DNA of 64,000 nucleotides, taken from NCBI GenBank assembly GCA_030648005.1, contig JAUSIP010000001.1, forward strand, positions 6,662 through 70,661. The letters run 5' to 3'. The position numbers and the translations under genes are program-made. Origin of the DNA: a bacterium. Lineage in GTDB: Bacteria; Patescibacteriota; Minisyncoccia; Phycocordibacterales; UBA12445. A model generated the notes under the pieces. The model did not search any database and had not been told where the DNA came from. It worked only from the letters and a program-made list of their open reading frames with translations. Positions 2,056 through 24,039 of the stretch are shown piece after piece; the stretch's first letter is position 1, and each line of letters opens with the position of its first letter.

Positions 2056-2709
2056 TTATACTATTGGTGACAACAAAATAACTTCTCCTTCTTTCCCCTC
2101 AAGATCTTTCATTTTAATCGTCAACTTATCCAGAGGCGACACGTTCTCTACTCCGGACTCCTTCAAGAAAGATGCGACAGCAGTCTTAGACACGCCGTTG
2201 ATATCGTGCTGCATTGGGATGACAATCTTCGGCTCGAGTAAGTTTACCAGCTTACTAGCATCTGAAGCGTTAAGTAATTCGTCAGCTGGCGAACTGCCGG
2301 TAATCGGCACAAATAGTATATCTATTGCTCCAAGTTCCTCCTTAACTTCTGGTTTTATATCTAGAACATTTAGCGCACCGACGTGACATAAATTTATGTC
2401 ATCAAAAACTACAGAATAAATAGTGTTCATCTTCTTAACTTCATTGATAGTTTGCTCCACCAAGAAACCCTTCACATAAATCCCCCCAGCCTCATACTCA
2501 CCTGGACCGTCTATAACGAAGAGTTCTCGACTCCCGCCGGAGACATTGGAGACACCATTATAGTTCTTGTCATTCATGCTTATAATGGCGATATCAGAAG
2601 AGAATCTGGTTGATTTAAAATCTGAATCCTTAGACACAGGGTTAAAAGCGATGACCACATCGCCCAACTGAACCTTAAAACACCCTATCCCATGATAAGA
2701 AATAACCAT
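2056..2709 (-). CDS. metallo-beta-lactamase-fold metal-dependent hydrolase
   Basis: 217 aa; N-terminal pattern MVISYHGIGCFKVQL...FNP typical of UPF0173/MBL-fold hydrolases. Confidence 0.6.
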   Translation of the reverse strand: MVISYHGIGCFKVQLGDVVIAFNPVSKDSDFKSTRFSSDIAIISMNDKNYNGVSNVSGGSRELFVIDGPGEYEAGGIYVKGFLVEQTINEVKKMNTIYSVVFDDINLCHVGALNVLDIKPEVKEELGAIDILFVPITGSSPADELLNASDASKLVNLLEPKIVIPMQHDINGVSKTAVASFLKESGVENVSPLDKLTIKMKDLEGKEGEVILLSPIV

Positions 2710-5398: not shown

Positions 5399-6730
5399 CT
5401 ATCCGCGTCGTTCTCCATCATCCTCAAATTTAAGTAGGACCCTGAATACCGGCGTTTTGCCGGCTAGCTCTTTGTCACCACCCTTCCAGATAGCCATCAC
5501 GACTCCGGAACCTTCGCCCATTTCAGATATTTCAGGAGTAAGCTTGCCTACGAAAATCCCGCTCGCATCTATTGTTCCAATAGGACCCACAACCCTCCAA
5601 TCTACGGAACTTGTGACATCCTCCTTGCTTCCATCACTTAAAACAAGCATCGCCCTAAAGGCAATTTTCTGCTGTTCTGCAAAATCAGAGTTAATGAAAG
5701 TTCTCGACTCTATAATAAGATCAACAGGAGTACCTCGCCTACTTCTTATTATCCCCCCGATCGGACTATCTATTCTCTGTTCAACATTGTTCAATATCTC
5801 TTTCTTAATTTCCGCCCTCACCTCAGCTCTTACCTCCGCTTTTTTTACCGGTTCCGTAATCTTTCTCTCAACTATTTCTCCCACTCTCCTCTCTTCTGTC
5901 TTAATATTAATTTTGGTCTTCAATTCAGTCCGAACTTCTCTCAATGAATCTTTAAGTAACTCCTCACGCAGTTTTTCCCTCAGAACTCCACGTGACTTCA
6001 GATCTTTCACTTGAACTTCGATCTTAGTATCCTCAGACTCGTTGGCATTCAACCACTCTTGATCTCTAGGCACGATACCCGCGCCTGCGCTAGCCGGACT
6101 AACTGCAACGTCCACAGCGACAACCACCTTTTTATTGACTCTAATCTTCTCAACATCATCATTGGTCCACTCGACAAATTTGCCTTCACTTAGAATTATC
6201 GGTTCTTTGCCGACTCGTTCTCCGGTCTTAGGGTCTATTACCTGGAGAGCAACTGTATGTTGGGATCCAAACATCTTAGAGTGCCCTCCCTCCGAACTCA
6301 TACCAAAAGCCGTACCACGTACGGTCGCCACGGCGTTGGATGTCTTCACCTCCCAGACTGAAGCCGGTGTGGCAAGATCTATCACCTTAGACCAAACTTT
6401 CCCGACCGCCAGGCTAACTTTGACAGAAATAGCTCCGCTTGCTTTGTCGTAATTTCCATCATTCAAGGTGATTGTGGTGCCAGAATCCAAACGAAGCACC
6501 GAGCCGTCCAAGAAGTGCACCTTAGCCTCTCCATCGGTGCTTACTACGAGAGTTATCGGGTAGTCCAAACTGTCTCCACTTTTAAGACCAGAAACTTCCC
6601 CCTTAGTGATAGTTATCCACGGCTTTGTCGGAAGCTCTACAACGGGTGGAATCTCCTTTCCATCACCACCCACTAAAGACAGAAACAAAATAGGGATGAA
6701 TAAAACCGCTGCAATAAATATATTTTTCAT
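5399..6730 (-). CDS. FecR-domain secreted protein with C-terminal Big_2-like domain
   Basis: Signal peptide; VKTSNAVATVRGTAFGM (FecR-like); C-terminal Ig-like segment; adjacent to the CHASE2 cyclase. Confidence 0.6.
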   Translation of the reverse strand: MKNIFIAAVLFIPILFLSLVGGDGKEIPPVVELPTKPWITITKGEVSGLKSGDSLDYPITLVVSTDGEAKVHFLDGSVLRLDSGTTITLNDGNYDKASGAISVKVSLAVGKVWSKVIDLATPASVWEVKTSNAVATVRGTAFGMSSEGGHSKMFGSQHTVALQVIDPKTGERVGKEPIILSEGKFVEWTNDDVEKIRVNKKVVVAVDVAVSPASAGAGIVPRDQEWLNANESEDTKIEVQVKDLKSRGVLREKLREELLKDSLREVRTELKTKINIKTEERRVGEIVERKITEPVKKAEVRAEVRAEIKKEILNNVEQRIDSPIGGIIRSRRGTPVDLIIESRTFINSDFAEQQKIAFRAMLVLSDGSKEDVTSSVDWRVVGPIGTIDASGIFVGKLTPEISEMGEGSGVVMAIWKGGDKELAGKTPVFRVLLKFEDDGERRG

Positions 6731-19336: not shown

Positions 19337-19876
19337 TTACAGTTTTTTTTGAAGAAATTCCCTGAGCTTCTTCTCGTTGGTGATTGGTTCAACTCTAACA
19401 GTCTCCGGATAGATAGGATGACCCGCTTCGTCCTCCTCGTAATCCTTATGTCCATCAATATCTTCCTTACTCAAACCAGCCTGCATAAGAAACTCTTCAA
19501 TGCTCTCTTTGGTATAGCCAGACCATGGAAGATCGGAGTTAGCATACATCAACCTTCCGCACTTGAGGATATTTGAGTAAATAGCATCAGCGTTCTGAAG
19601 AACTCTCTGGCGCAAGATCTCGTGTTCAAGATTTTTGATCCTCTTGTTGTAAGTTGTCTTACCGGCATGCCTTTCGTTGTATTGCGCGATCTGATCATCT
19701 GTGAAGCATCGTTCTAGGAGTTCAGCGAGCTTCCTGACCGGATCCTTGATCAGCTTGAAGCCACGTCGCTCAACAACCTCGACATAAGCTTCCAGATCTG
19801 CCCATGCATCCACGAACCGCTCCTCGATCTCTTCTGTATCTTCCTGAGACAAAACTTCGACTTCTGATGTACTCAT
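19337..19876 (-). CDS. hypothetical acidic protein
   Basis: Start at the internal ATG 19876 with RBS GGAGGT; terminator hairpin 19297..19315; no family recognised. Confidence 0.5.
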   Translation of the reverse strand: MSTSEVEVLSQEDTEEIEERFVDAWADLEAYVEVVERRGFKLIKDPVRKLAELLERCFTDDQIAQYNERHAGKTTYNKRIKNLEHEILRQRVLQNADAIYSNILKCGRLMYANSDLPWSGYTKESIEEFLMQAGLSKEDIDGHKDYEEDEAGHPIYPETVRVEPITNEKKLREFLQKKL

Positions 19877-20011
19877 TTGGGACCTCCTCTTTATTGACAA
19901 ACGGCTCTTTTCCAATAGCAAGATAGCATTAAAAAGTCCGAGTGGCAACTATGTTCGAAGTCGGTCTTCGTGCATCTTAAACTACAAAATATAGCTTAGA
20001 ATTTTGGCAAT

Positions 20012-20069: not shown

Positions 20070-20309
20070 CTAAGAACCTTGCGGGCGTTCGTGAACTGCG
20101 ACGATCTTCGATGCTGAAGTCACGCGCGTTTCAGGCGTGGCAGGCTTGCCGTCGACCGACAGGTTCTTCTTGTCGAGGCTGACTCCAGCCTCCTTGAGCA
20201 CCTCGGCGAGCGTGGCGCTCGCTTCGATAGTGACCGTCTTGGTGATCGGTTTTCCCGAAGTGGGGACGACCTCAAGTTGAACTTCGAAAGTCTTCTTGGT
20301 CTTGGTCAT
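20070..20309 (-). CDS. small ubiquitin-like (beta-grasp) protein, C-terminus ...HERPQGS
   Basis: 79 aa; predicted beta-beta-alpha-beta-beta pattern; last gene of the operon with the E1-like gene; RBS GAGGGGG; GC-rich. Confidence 0.5.
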   Translation of the reverse strand: MTKTKKTFEVQLEVVPTSGKPITKTVTIEASATLAEVLKEAGVSLDKKNLSVDGKPATPETRVTSASKIVAVHERPQGS

Positions 20310-20353: not shown

Positions 20354-20992
20354 CTATACTTCTTGAAAGTACCCGCACAACATCCTCAGATGCCGCTTGA
20401 ATTTACTCTGTTTGAAGAACATTGTCAAGGCAGCGCAGGCGACGTTGGCCGCGGTACTGCTGATGTGTATCGCACCATGGTTGCCGCACATAGACCGGGT
20501 AGCTTCTACCGAGGAATATCGGATGAAATTCTCATAATAATCCACGTCATCCTTATCGCACGTGCGAATAGCGAACACTTCGATATATTCAGCGTTGATT
20601 CTCGTATCAACGAAGATCCCAACGAGAGGATTGTCCTTAACAGCCTTCCAGATGAGCTGGCGCGCCTCCATAGTATCAACACAAGCAACGACCGCGGTTT
20701 TGAGCGGTTCACCGTTGTACATCTTGGGTATAACCCTAATCTGAACTCCTGACGCTTCTTCCACGATCTCACTTAACGCTTCGACCTTCAGCCTCAAAAT
20801 ATGCTTCTGCCGGAACTCCGACATCGGCACGTTATGCGAGGCCACTTCGTCGCCATCCAAAACCGTAAGATCAGCGCACCCTTCTCTGGCGAGCATGATA
20901 GTGAGTCTACTGCCGACTGAACCGGCGCCAATGATAGTAACAGGTCGGAAGAGATCCGGATCAACGATCTTATTCTGTGCATCGAAATTCAT
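20354..20992 (-). CDS. E1-like ThiF/MoeB-family adenylyltransferase
   Basis: VTIIGAGSVGSRLTIMLAREGCADLTVLDGDEV Rossmann/ATP-binding signature; start ATG 20992 overlaps the upstream gene's stop (ATGA). Confidence 0.75.
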   Translation of the reverse strand: MNFDAQNKIVDPDLFRPVTIIGAGSVGSRLTIMLAREGCADLTVLDGDEVASHNVPMSEFRQKHILRLKVEALSEIVEEASGVQIRVIPKMYNGEPLKTAVVACVDTMEARQLIWKAVKDNPLVGIFVDTRINAEYIEVFAIRTCDKDDVDYYENFIRYSSVEATRSMCGNHGAIHISSTAANVACAALTMFFKQSKFKRHLRMLCGYFQEV

Positions 20993-22413
20993 TGTCCTAT
21001 GCAAGGCACACCTCCTTCGTCCAGTATCACCTTGATCGGCCATTCAGCGATCTTGTGCAGAGCCGTCTGATCTTCGTAACCTTCGAAAAGCCAACGAGTG
21101 AAGTAGCCGATGCCGTCTGCGTATCGATGCTCCTTGATCGCATCCTTGATCGCCGTGCCGGCATTGCCAAAACAGGGCGTGCCTTCTTTATTGATATGAG
21201 GATGAGGAACTCCTTCCGGATGAAACCGATCGAGACTCCAGATATAGAAGTCGCCGTTTCTATGGATTGCGAAAGCGAACCTGCCAAGCTGATGAGTATT
21301 GCCCGCATTAGTAATGTCAGCTCCGATAGTAGTAACGCGGATCATATCTTCAGCAAGCGATAGTTCCGATACATATGGATTCGAACGGATCCTGCGCCAC
21401 TGCCCCTTGAGAGATCTGAACAATTCATCTTTGGGCAGGGCATTGCTTACTGTCTTACTCAAGCGCTGAAGATTGAAACATTCACGCTCATTGATAGCCA
21501 GAGTCATCCTCAGATCTTCAATCTCTTGTTGTATCTTCTGCACCTCTCTGTCTATGCCGCCACTGACGGTGCTTATCCATTTTGTTGTAACGTCGACAAA
21601 CCTCTTGCGATTCAGACGGAGCATTTTGTCAGATGGCTTAGCTCCACCTTGCAGAGCCTGATAACGGCGTAGGGTCACAGCCAGAGCATTATCCAAAATT
21701 TTCAAACTAGTAAGAGAATTGAAAAATTCAACCACGCAAAACAGAAAATACCAGTTATTGCCAACTATCTGCGCAAGATCGTTCTCCCCGTCGCCGACGA
21801 ACTCCCCTCTTCCGGGAGTACCGGAGAAGGTCAGAACACCGTTGCCTTCTTTGGTATCCAACTGAAGGTCGAAGGCGCGGCGTAGATACTTGCTCTTTGA
21901 ATATCCGGGCGAATAGCTCCAAGGGAAAATATTGATCAGATTAGGCTTGTCGGGTAGCGGAGGCCTACCTATATCGCGTTTCTCGGCGTAAAAATCTATG
22001 TCCAATCCTCCGGCAAGCCTAGAGAAATTCTCTAAGATAATTCTGATGCTGGAATAGGGAGCTTCTTCGATCGTCTTCTTATCGTCTTCCTTCTCTGACA
22101 AGGGGATGATCCTGATATTTCCGGTCTTGATCCCAACGTACGGAACAGTGCGATTGCCCCACTTGGCATTCTTGGCATTAATGACATTTGGGTAAGGAGC
22201 TTGCCCGATACCGACAATCAGAAGAACGTCAATGAAGGTCATCCTCGCTTCCGCCACATTCGCGCACTGGAAGATGTAAGCATCGAGCTCGTATGGCCCT
22301 ACTCGTACTGTCCGCCTCTTGAAAGGGATCCCCTTCTTTGTGAACTCTTGAGTATGAGGCTCAGCCACGAGAGCCGGCAAGGCGAAAATAGGTGTTTTCA
22401 GTCCGGGAACCAT
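20989..22413 (-). CDS. E2-like (UBC-fold) protein with ~330-aa N-terminal domain of unknown function
   Basis: C-terminal HPHINKEGTPC matches the UBC active site HPNINSNGSIC with identical spacing; RBS AAGGAGG; first gene of the operon. Confidence 0.6.
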   Translation of the reverse strand: MVPGLKTPIFALPALVAEPHTQEFTKKGIPFKRRTVRVGPYELDAYIFQCANVAEARMTFIDVLLIVGIGQAPYPNVINAKNAKWGNRTVPYVGIKTGNIRIIPLSEKEDDKKTIEEAPYSSIRIILENFSRLAGGLDIDFYAEKRDIGRPPLPDKPNLINIFPWSYSPGYSKSKYLRRAFDLQLDTKEGNGVLTFSGTPGRGEFVGDGENDLAQIVGNNWYFLFCVVEFFNSLTSLKILDNALAVTLRRYQALQGGAKPSDKMLRLNRKRFVDVTTKWISTVSGGIDREVQKIQQEIEDLRMTLAINERECFNLQRLSKTVSNALPKDELFRSLKGQWRRIRSNPYVSELSLAEDMIRVTTIGADITNAGNTHQLGRFAFAIHRNGDFYIWSLDRFHPEGVPHPHINKEGTPCFGNAGTAIKDAIKEHRYADGIGYFTRWLFEGYEDQTALHKIAEWPIKVILDEGGVPCIGQ

Positions 22414-22527
22414 CTCTGCCTCCTTTGGCCCTCCGTAGCTTTATGCGTAGGGGGCCTTTATTTCGTACAGTGTCAAGGAGCACTCAAACCGATGAGATAA
22501 TATCAGGAATAATTGATTTAGTCAATG

Positions 22528-22614
22528 CGGAGGTGGGAGGATTTGAACCTCCGATACCCTTTCGGGTATGCCAGTTTTCGAAACTGGTGATTTCAACCAC
22601 TCACCCACACCTCC
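22528..22614 (-). tRNA. tRNA-Ser (anticodon CGA), type II with long variable arm
   Basis: Hand fold: acceptor GGAGGTG/CACCTCC, anticodon loop TTCGAAA, T-arm GGAGGTTCAAATCCTCC, discriminator G, no encoded CCA. Confidence 0.85.
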
Positions 22615-23002: not shown

Positions 23003-23139
23003 TTGCGAAGCAAGGAGACTAAGTGAATGAACTGCTTCATTCACGCCAGAGAGTCGAAGCCCGATTGAGATAGTTTATGATTCCGAGTTTATCGAGGAAG
23101 AAATAAAATATCCAATTGGGGTACTGTTCCTGTAAGGAA

Positions 23140-23158
23140 CGACTCTCTGTAGGGTCAT
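23140..23158 (+). repeat. direct orphan copy of the tRNA-Glu 3' end (CGACTCTCTGTAGGGTCAT)
   Basis: 19-nt identity with 22984..23003; preceded by the GGGTACTG-hairpin motif. Confidence 0.8.
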
Positions 23159-23172
23159 CGCGAAATACCACC

Positions 23173-24039
23173 ATGACTCATCAAATACTCTTATATTACA
23201 AATATATAAACATCGAGGACCCGGAAGCGCTGATGGCGTGGCAGAAGAAGCTGTGTGAAGAACTTACTCTAAAGGGTAGAATTATAATCGCCAAAGAGGG
23301 AATCAATGGCACGGTCGAAGGCACTAGAGAGAATACTGAAAGGTATATAGAAGCGATGAAGGCTGATCCCCTCTTTGCTGACGTTCACTGGAAGATAAGT
23401 GCGAGTGACGGATTGGCCTTTCCTAAACTATCTATCAAGGTCCGATCAGAGATAGTGAGCGCACATCTTGATGGCGAAGATGTGAATCCGACAGAAGTTA
23501 CCGGCAGACATTTGAATCCTGAAGAACTTCACGAACTTTTAAAAAGCGGCGAGGAAGTTTATGTCGTCGACATGAGGAATGACTATGAACACAGAGTCGG
23601 GCACTTTAAGAATTCAATACTTCCTCCATTAACCAACTTCCGAGATCTGCCGAAAATAATTCCGGAGCTTGAATATTTGAAAGACAAAAAGGTTGTGACA
23701 GTCTGTACTGGCGGCGTGCGGTGTGAGAAAGCTTCCGGCTATCTAATCAAGAAAGGATTTAAAGATGTCAGTCAGTTGAACGGCGGGATTGTATCGTACA
23801 TGGAGAAGTTCCCTAACCAATATTTCAAAGGTAAATTATATGTCTTTGATGGCCGAGTCACGATGGGCTTCGACACCGATAGTCCAGCACACGAAATAAT
23901 CGGACAATGTGATAAGTGTAATAAGCAAAGTGAGAATTACATAAACTGCAACAACAATCTCTGCCATCGCCATTTCATCTGCTGTGTAAACTGCATAGAA
24001 ACAAGCGGAGCCTTCTGCGGGGATCAGTGCAGAAATTGA
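23173..24039 (+). CDS. trhO: rhodanese-domain tRNA U34 hydroxylase TrhO/YceA (UPF0176) with Cys-rich C-terminus
   Basis: MTHQILLYYKY...AKEGINGTV, rhodanese CTGGVRCE; start at ATG 23173. Confidence 0.8.
   Translation: MTHQILLYYKYINIEDPEALMAWQKKLCEELTLKGRIIIAKEGINGTVEGTRENTERYIEAMKADPLFADVHWKISASDGLAFPKLSIKVRSEIVSAHLDGEDVNPTEVTGRHLNPEELHELLKSGEEVYVVDMRNDYEHRVGHFKNSILPPLTNFRDLPKIIPELEYLKDKKVVTVCTGGVRCEKASGYLIKKGFKDVSQLNGGIVSYMEKFPNQYFKGKLYVFDGRVTMGFDTDSPAHEIIGQCDKCNKQSENYINCNNNLCHRHFICCVNCIETSGAFCGDQCRN

Follow-up and report, generated by a model that had tools for sequence, protein, structure and literature searches.

Bacterial systems that combine a ubiquitin-activating enzyme (E1), a ubiquitin-conjugating enzyme (E2) and a ubiquitin-like protein (Ubl) are under active study, both for their place in the ancestry of eukaryotic ubiquitination and as pathways of immunity. 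The described pathways fall into CBASS/MBL, Bil and Bub systems, and the authors of the Bub paper point out that every characterised bacterial ubiquitination-related pathway encodes a peptidase. Of the operon types 6a to 6e distinguished by Iyer et al. (2006), types 6a, 6c and 6d list a JAB among their components. The Bil E2 is thought to choose its targets itself. The locus described here is a three-gene cassette in a 64,000-nucleotide stretch of a Patescibacteria contig (JAUSIP010000001.1 of assembly GCA_030648005.1, forward-strand positions 6,662 to 70,661), which is called the window throughout. The cassette encodes a 474-amino-acid (aa) E2-like protein with a long N-terminal module, a minimal E1 and a small Ubl modifier and, in contrast to the characterised bacterial systems of the Bub paper, is without a peptidase. 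It looks like an undescribed variant of bacterial ubiquitination-like systems, and full-text searches of the available literature returned no relevant account of such systems in Patescibacteria, Parcubacteria or the candidate phyla radiation. In the window the three genes are:

20989..22413, minus strand: whole open reading frame (ORF) of the composite E2-like protein P0001, 474 aa plus stop
20354..20992, minus strand: minimal ThiF-type E1, about 212 aa from MNFDAQ (start 20992), by Pfam ThiF and orthologue alignment
20070..20309, minus strand: 79-aa beta-grasp ubiquitin-like protein with the end ...HERPQGS, by weak SAMP2/ThiS-type matches and a PDB profile

The E2-like ORF is a real gene, with close full-length homologues and a large profile family, and it lies where an earlier note made from the sequence alone had placed it (22413..20989, minus strand, 474 aa). 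An AAGGAGG Shine–Dalgarno sequence stands 6 nt upstream of its ATG, and the protein is entered at NCBI as 'MAG: hypothetical protein Q7S19_00170', where MAG denotes a metagenome-assembled genome. A word-indexed search of 5.8 billion proteins recovered the protein itself and nine full-length relatives at 36–61% identity, all nine of them without Pfam domains. When 1.84 billion cluster representatives were searched exhaustively with a profile, 2133 matched at E ≤ 1e-3, 639 at E ≤ 1e-10 and 152 at E ≤ 1e-30; most members are 430–550 aa long and align across nearly the whole profile. Two further profile-seeded runs, in which the word prefilter retained close relatives only, added almost no new members. 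Named members come from Patescibacteria MAGs, including Candidatus Lloydbacteria; further members lie on a 64% GC contig of 335 kb and in a MAG of Baltobacteraceae with 68% GC. The family is large, yet entirely unannotated. The conservation of single residues given below comes from an alignment of 131 full-length sequences.

The protein is composed of an N-terminal module (residues 1–327) and a C-terminal core, with the following parts:

22060..22413, minus strand: predicted lobe A, residues 1–118, by AlphaFold2 (AF2) secondary structure with a predicted local distance difference test score (pLDDT) above 90, and by variability
21640..22059, minus strand: predicted lobe B, residues 119–258, by AF2 model and conservation
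21748..21960, minus strand: lobe B motif block, residues 152–222, by 131-sequence conservation, translation checked
21433..21639, minus strand: predicted long helix/coiled-coil spacer, residues 259–327, by model and heptad pattern, translation checked
20989..21432, minus strand: UBC/E2-like catalytic domain, residues 328–474, by model, alignments and motif test
21163..21222, minus strand: active-site loop HPEGVPHPHINKEGTPCFGN, residues 398–417, by conservation, translation checked

The earlier note regarded only the last roughly 140 residues as UBC-like, and hhalign, a PDB domain profile, Foldseek and a motif test agree, placing the UBC-like stretch proper at residues 328–460. In the AF2 model the core begins with a helix (328–343) and continues through a six-strand beta-meander (348–393), the active-site loop and helices at 418–444; in its tail, Y446 is invariant and a W458-P459 motif is near-invariant. 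The loop sequence PHPHINKEGTPC, which holds Cys414, has a spacing identical to that of the UbcH5B active site, YHPNINSNGSIC. The gap from HPH to Cys is seven residues in 148 of 153 family members, and the pattern HPH-x7-C arose in none of 31,000 shuffles; the head of the E2 motif pattern follows PROSITE PS00183. The residues that are invariant across the alignment, H404, H406, C414, G416 and Y446, all fall within the last quarter of the protein, and Cys414 is the predicted thioester site.

Comparisons with known E2 proteins run in the same direction. The hhalign alignment with UbcH5B keeps register all the way from helix 1, across the strands, to HPN and Cys85, with a probability of 37% for the full-length protein and of 57% (E 1e-4) for the isolated domain. 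The isolated-domain profile had a single coherent match in the PDB, to UBE2L3, over 84 columns from helix 1 to the Cys (E 0.15–0.28). Foldseek with the high-confidence model ranked UbcH7, Atg10 and the E2-variant FTS as the best PDB matches (E 0.07–0.4), with none at E ≤ 0.001. Because these several weak lines agree, and because the gene context supplies the E1 and beta-grasp protein that an E2 requires, the C-terminal ~135 residues are read as an E2 core. No curated E2 model (Pfam UQ_con, Prok-E2_A to E, NCBIfam) matched at E ≤ 1 when the query and 101 members were scanned singly, and the domain is therefore treated as a new divergent E2 family rather than as a member of a named one. A confident match to a non-E2 family, which would have reassigned the whole protein, did not turn up.

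What had been described as an N-terminal region of ~330 residues with no recognisable domain is a conserved, family-specific module, predicted to be folded at pLDDT above 90 and carrying near-invariant motifs across the 131 members. Its lack of recognisable relatives holds across Pfam, NCBIfam, PADLOC, PHROGs, PDB sequence and profile searches, and Foldseek at E ≤ 0.001. The first four libraries gave no match to the module for the query and up to 101 relatives, apart from sub-threshold coiled-coil noise. A PDB sequence search with the 474-aa protein found nothing, full-length profiles had no PDB matches in the N-terminal region other than sub-threshold coiled-coil ones, and a profile of residues 1–258 drew zero PDB matches even at E ≤ 10. 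The AF2 model built on 131 sequences has a mean pLDDT of 91.9 and a predicted template-modelling score (pTM) of 0.72, with most 10-residue blocks within residues 11–310 above pLDDT 90; an earlier model from 10 sequences had reached 68.9, and its Foldseek result was uninformative. Residues 1–327 are confidently predicted to be folded in three parts with no disorder.

The three parts differ in how they are conserved. Lobe A (about residues 9–118 in the model) is predicted to have a beta-alpha-beta-beta-alpha core, with three strands and a helix coming after it. It is the most length-variable part, at 77–166 aa, and has a mean pairwise identity of 14.7%. Foldseek produced weak PII/ACT/KH-like matches (E 0.4–1.5) that may belong to this lobe of the model, the query ranges not being reported. 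Lobe B, with one helix, seven short strands and a closing helix (236–255) in the model, has a mean pairwise identity of 23.6% and holds the sole conserved motifs of the N-terminal region. The motif block comprises P152, P168-P169-G170, G201-R202-G203, D208, Q215, G218 and Y222. Near-invariant among these are P152 (87–90%), P168, G170, G201, G203, Q215 and Y222 (89–90%), with R202 (78%) and D208 (83%) less strict. There is no conserved Ser, Cys, His or acidic pair in residues 1–258, the conserved polar residues being R202, D208, Q215 and Y222. Glycine/proline loops with four polar residues and no conserved Ser, Cys or His argue for a binding pocket over a hydrolase.

The third part is a predicted 56-residue helix (269–324) that leads into helix 1 of the E2 core. 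Its region has a mean pairwise identity of 14.1%, and hydrophobic a/d positions (287, 291, 294, 298, 301, 305, 308/309, 312, 315, 318/319 and 322) are conserved in the 131 members, with a periodicity peak of 3.5–3.6 over residues 287–322. The conserved pattern and its period mark a genuine heptad helix, and the coiled-coil segment quoted in the earlier note proves to be residues 288–318, inside it. The heptad helix could serve intramolecular packing or dimerisation. In the E2 core, mean pairwise identity stands at 36.0%, against 14.7% in lobe A and 23.6% in lobe B.

In complete family members the N-module is found only fused to the E2 core. Two incomplete records touch on this arrangement. A 731-nt metagenomic contig encodes, at 67–714, a 215-aa protein made up of the helix and E2 core, with its start 4 nt ahead of the stop codon of another ORF upstream (2–70). 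The end of that upstream ORF (..ISIFEMRELV..) resembles the helix that closes lobe B; either the N-module and the E2 core are naturally encoded apart on this contig, or a frameshift error has divided them. Protein P0013 (389 aa) matches the N-module only, at profile positions 4–293, and ends in an Arg-rich low-complexity tail; it looks more like a frameshifted gene call than a free-standing N-module. That one of the two lobes, A or B, might be an additional UBC/RWD-like domain without activity has no support at the sequence level, with hhalign probabilities of at most 0.5% against the C-terminal domain, UbcH5B and Ubc13.

A Foldseek search of BFVD returned seven uncharacterised phage proteins at E 4e-4 to 1e-2, over 180–290 aligned columns and with a template-modelling (TM) score of about 0.2. 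Six are of 420–542 aa and one is of 1146 aa (A0A6J5NL39, A0A516LAI7, A0A516LW79, A0A516ML27, A0A516M3P8, A0A8S5PR93 and A0A516L9P6), and they are the sole Foldseek matches with a probability of at least 0.93. At the sequence level, neither tblastn on phage genomes nor pattern scanning of viral contigs nor PHROGs turned up a relative. The structural matches may reflect a common domain or, given the TM score, merely a long-helix effect.

Downstream gene content could be read at 17 loci, including the window, L001–L010, L012–L015 and one JGI contig for which no DNA was available. A ThiF gene of ~215 aa follows the E2-like gene, often overlapping it, in 16 of the 17, the exception being L015. The E1 is assigned by Pfam ThiF at 4.1e-12 (46 bits against a cutoff of 28.1), and its scores with NCBIfam equivalog models are all far under their cutoffs. 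Across 11 aligned orthologues it is a single ThiF domain of ~212–223 aa that keeps the motifs GAGSVG, SHN, CVD and DTR and one conserved Cys in CGxH, with no ubiquitin-fold domain, zinc motifs or JAB. In the window the E2-like gene ends in a TGA stop that overlaps the E1 start codon within the four letters ATGA (20989–20992, minus strand), an arrangement that L001 also fits and that is suggestive of translational coupling and of an E2–E1 complex with fixed stoichiometry.

The third gene encodes the modifier. Its profile matches RnfH, SAMP2, PF1061, TtuB, ISG15 and ubiquitin in the PDB (E 0.006–1), from which the small protein is read as a beta-grasp protein with Gly-Ser in place of the Gly-Gly of SAMP2. 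The Gly-Ser C-terminus is present in all 15 loci at which the modifier was read (71–85 aa, usually ending ERPQGS), and a Gly-Gly end of the ubiquitin, SAMP, ThiS and MoaD type in none. It spans genomes from 44% GC Patescibacteria to 68% GC, including two high-GC contigs from outside Patescibacteria. The order of E2-like gene, ThiF gene and ~75-aa gene is likewise kept from Patescibacteria to genomes of 64–68% GC, with differing flanks. No JAB, other peptidase or E3 is encoded in the cassette at the loci read, and no fourth conserved gene was found.

A mechanism can be proposed from this layout. The E1 would adenylate the 79-aa modifier, possibly after removal of its Ser, and pass it to Cys414 as a thioester. 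The part of lobe B and the helix would be to dock the protein, itself probably dimeric, on a dimeric E1 and/or to hold the modifier tail, with R202, D208, Q215 and Y222 lining a pocket of Gly/Pro loops in lobe B, and the variable lobe A would select the substrate. The N-module is proposed to fill both roles because no E3 is encoded and because the E1 is without the ubiquitin-fold domain that would recruit an E2. That the N-module gives E1 docking and/or substrate selection, in the manner of an E2/E3 hybrid, is a reading we judge to be evenly balanced between right and wrong.

The suggestion in the earlier note that the extra region specifies targets or carries effector functions fits the data as an adaptor or specificity role, which is consistent with the fastest-evolving lobe A, the absent E3 and the E1 lacking a ubiquitin-fold domain. 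The rise in identity from lobe A through lobe B to the E2 core, the family-wide heptads and the minimal, coupled E1 also support an adaptor role, and no conserved nucleophile in the N-module points to an effector enzyme. The N-terminus had also been named as the likeliest seat of novelty. The module is novel, but so are the E2 core, the Gly-Ser terminus and the peptidase-less cassette.

Several observations weigh against this picture. Taken one by one, the E2 matches are weak (E 0.07 in Foldseek, E 0.15 in hmmsearch, probability 37–57% in hhalign), and the Pfam and NCBIfam E2 models all fall short of E ≤ 1. The family member at L015 has neither an adjacent E1 nor an adjacent ubiquitin-like gene. 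Given the Gly-Ser end, standard adenylation may need prior processing by a further activity. The lobe B motif block is read as a candidate binding pocket, and the tie of the N-module to the E1, the modifier or a substrate is inferred.

The biochemistry could be as proposed and the role antiviral, as in Bil, with lobe A recognising a phage protein that is then tagged. Bil E2s have been proposed to recognise phage targets directly without an E3, and a lobe A that has diverged almost to randomness would suit such a task. The distribution of the family is patchy, the cassette travels whole between flanks that are unrelated, sometimes beside tRNA genes and with slightly raised GC in the window, and the only high-probability Foldseek matches are uncharacterised phage proteins. 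However, the flanks read are mostly core or metabolic (FtsZ, ValRS, RF1, SerRS, DNA ligase, GatCA, TopA), with no known defence genes or regulators of the CapW, CapH or CapP type seen in them. No PADLOC model matches the 474-aa protein, and the cassette is without a deconjugating peptidase. An antiviral role is on the unlikely side.

The missing peptidase might alternatively be the N-module itself, as a new enzyme that trims the terminal Ser to expose Gly or removes conjugates. It would then fill the role of JAB/Cap3/BilC or BubE in a cassette that encodes no peptidase, and the Gly-Ser end in 15 of 15 loci makes a processing step plausible. BubE offers a precedent, as an unrecognised DUF that turned out to be a protease. 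The conservation pattern argues otherwise, as residues 1–258 contain no conserved Ser, Cys, His or acidic pair, and the module has no similarity to any peptidase family. That the terminal Ser is strictly invariant could just as well be a sign that it is retained and put to use. A peptidase N-module is considered quite improbable.

Equally doubtful is that the cassette is a sulfur-carrier relay of the ThiF–ThiS, MoeB–MoaD or TtuC–TtuB type with no protein conjugation, in which a persulfide or acyl-disulfide would sit on Cys414 and an acceptor such as a tRNA or small molecule would be bound by the N-module. ThiF and MoeB are among the closest named relatives of the E1, the carriers SAMP2 and TtuB are among the closest PDB relatives of the small protein, and a gene with a rhodanese domain lies 700 nt away in the window. 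Sulfur carriers, however, need a Gly-Gly terminus, and the modifier ends in Gly-Ser. Its partner has the active-site signature of an E2 at canonical spacing, a feature foreign to known sulfur relays. None of the loci read has a linked gene for thiazole, molybdopterin or tRNA-thiolase, and the rhodanese gene is not a conserved neighbour.

That H398, H404, H406 and C414 form a metal site, structural or JAMM-like, in a protein that is then no E2 is highly improbable: three His and one Cys, invariant or nearly so, do fall within 17 residues and no curated E2 model matches, but their spacing and flanks reproduce the E2 HPN-x7-Cys pattern, the JAMM motif HxHx7Sx2D occurs in none of 155 members (the motif test on which a JAMM/zinc-site reading of the HPH..C loop was rejected), the profile and fold matches are all to E2s and in register from helix 1 on, and the neighbouring genes encode an E1 and a beta-grasp protein.

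Features of the surrounding DNA add detail to the cassette. The modifier gene was located at other loci as follows:

L001, 10076–10309: modifier gene
L002, 2805–3050: modifier gene
L003, 6735–6962: modifier gene
L004, 6764–7000: modifier gene
L010, 8023–8238: modifier gene
L012, 2283–2498: modifier gene
L013, 7321–7578: modifier gene
L014, 7240–7482: modifier gene
L005–L009: modifier gene also present

At L008 a second ORF of 102 aa (2067–2375, plus strand; end ..AVERVSGGS; no Pfam match) directly follows a modifier ending ERAQGS and may be a paralogous modifier. At L015 the family member is the 549-aa protein P0107 (5001–6650), with no ThiF or small beta-grasp gene adjoining.

A 203-aa gene at 19337–19948 (minus strand) was considered as a further part of the cassette and set aside as lineage-specific, since only the closest relatives have it. 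No family matches it, the ~75 residues at its C-terminus recur in a 297-aa gene at the same position in L002 (3629–4522), and in L001, L003, L004 and loci further removed unrelated genes stand in its place. Neighbours in the window include genes for FtsA, FtsZ, UDP-glucose dehydrogenase, a DEAD-box helicase, a rhodanese-domain protein, TsaD and ValRS, and across loci the flanks are mostly core or metabolic genes. The rhodanese-domain gene, of the UPF0176 type and with a sulfur-transfer fold, is at 23116–24039 (plus strand), about 700 nt from the cassette and beyond two tRNA genes; none was seen beside the cassette in other loci.

A tRNA-Ser gene is directly upstream of the cassette in the window (22527–22614, minus strand). 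Elsewhere, tRNA-Met genes flank it on both sides in L010 (5781–5852 and 8429–8505), and a tRNA-Gly gene in L015 (4842–4914) and a tRNA-Thr gene in L001 (6799–6872) adjoin it. The GC content of the window cassette is 48–51%, against about 44% in its flanks. Adjoining tRNAs and raised GC are a hint that the cassette moves as an islet. A link to serine, prompted by tRNA-Ser upstream in the window and SerRS downstream in L012, was dropped because other loci have tRNA-Met, tRNA-Thr, tRNA-Gly or none.

If the N-module is a built-in substrate receptor or an E1 adaptor, the cassette would represent a minimal route to a specific conjugation system, and a tractable three-protein system for learning how E2s gain target specificity. 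The occurrence in Patescibacteria adds interest, as their biology is largely uncharted. Should the cassette belong to a pathway of its own kind, a modifier used with its invariant Ser, or after regulated loss of it, would imply a chemistry or maturation step new to known ubiquitin-like systems, and reduced Patescibacteria genomes and core-gene flanks would point to housekeeping or host interaction over classical defence.

Among described systems, Bil Type I/II (BilABCD) is similar in having separate genes for the Ubl, a Cys-type E2 and the E1, with no E3. Bil also has the JAB/JAMM peptidase BilC, whereas no JAB gene is present at the loci read here. The Bil E1 is large, with adenylation domains, inactive and active, in tandem and a Cys domain; the present E1 has ~212–223 aa and a single ThiF domain. 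Also unlike Bil, the E2 carries an N-module of ~330 aa, the Ubl ends in Gly-Ser, and the E2-like protein has no PADLOC or Pfam match. Bub (6E/DUF6527) resembles the cassette as a diverged bacterial E1/E2/Ubl pathway that standard models miss and that has unusual chemistry. It is built from Ubl–E2 or E2–E1 fusions and the DUF6527 serine protease BubE, and works through Ser/Tyr oxyester intermediates with no catalytic Cys. In the present family, in contrast, the Cys is invariant and set in a canonical E2 loop, the genes are separate and DUF6527 has no match.

The E1 scores best with Cap2-type models of Type II CBASS and 6A-MBL (PADLOC E1–E2 at 2.5e-12; NCBIfam 6A-MBL cap2_3 at 2e-13), over the Rossmann part only. 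Cap2 itself is an E2–E1 fusion that uses the C-terminus of a CD-NTase as substrate and is paired with the JAB peptidase Cap3, none of which was found in the present cassette; no CD-NTase lies near the cassette in the window, and PADLOC E1–E2 models match the E1 protein alone. PRTRC systems comprise proteins A–F and a ParB-related protein; here there is a sub-threshold PRTRC_ThiF score on the E1 (32 bits against a cutoff of 144.75 bits), and PRTRC models have no match on the 474-aa protein or on other scanned cassette or downstream proteins. The ThiF–ThiS, MoeB–MoaD, UbaA–SAMP and TtuC–TtuB pairs share a minimal ThiF-type adenylating enzyme encoded beside a small beta-grasp protein, but have no E2 and a Gly-Gly end where the present cassette has an E2-like partner and a Gly-Ser end.

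The eukaryotic E2/E3 hybrids UBE2O and BIRC6 carry substrate-binding regions and a coiled coil N-terminal to the UBC core, and they use ubiquitin and the canonical E1s UBA1/UBA6. Their analogy to the present protein is one of logic only, with no sequence relationship or demonstrated fold relationship between the N-terminal regions. Four distinctions set the cassette apart: more than 2000 unannotated clusters, the absence of a peptidase and an E3, a Gly-Ser modifier, and a 330-residue module, confidently predicted to be folded, of a type new to the libraries. It fails at least one defining feature of the Bil, Bub, CBASS Cap2, 6A-MBL, PRTRC and sulfur-carrier systems. It may be, though this is put forward tentatively, that it adds to CBASS/MBL, Bil and Bub a fourth kind of ubiquitination-like pathway in bacteria, one of three genes, without peptidase or E3, in which an N-terminal receptor on the E2 replaces the E3 and the modifier is used with its invariant C-terminal Ser or after its regulated removal.

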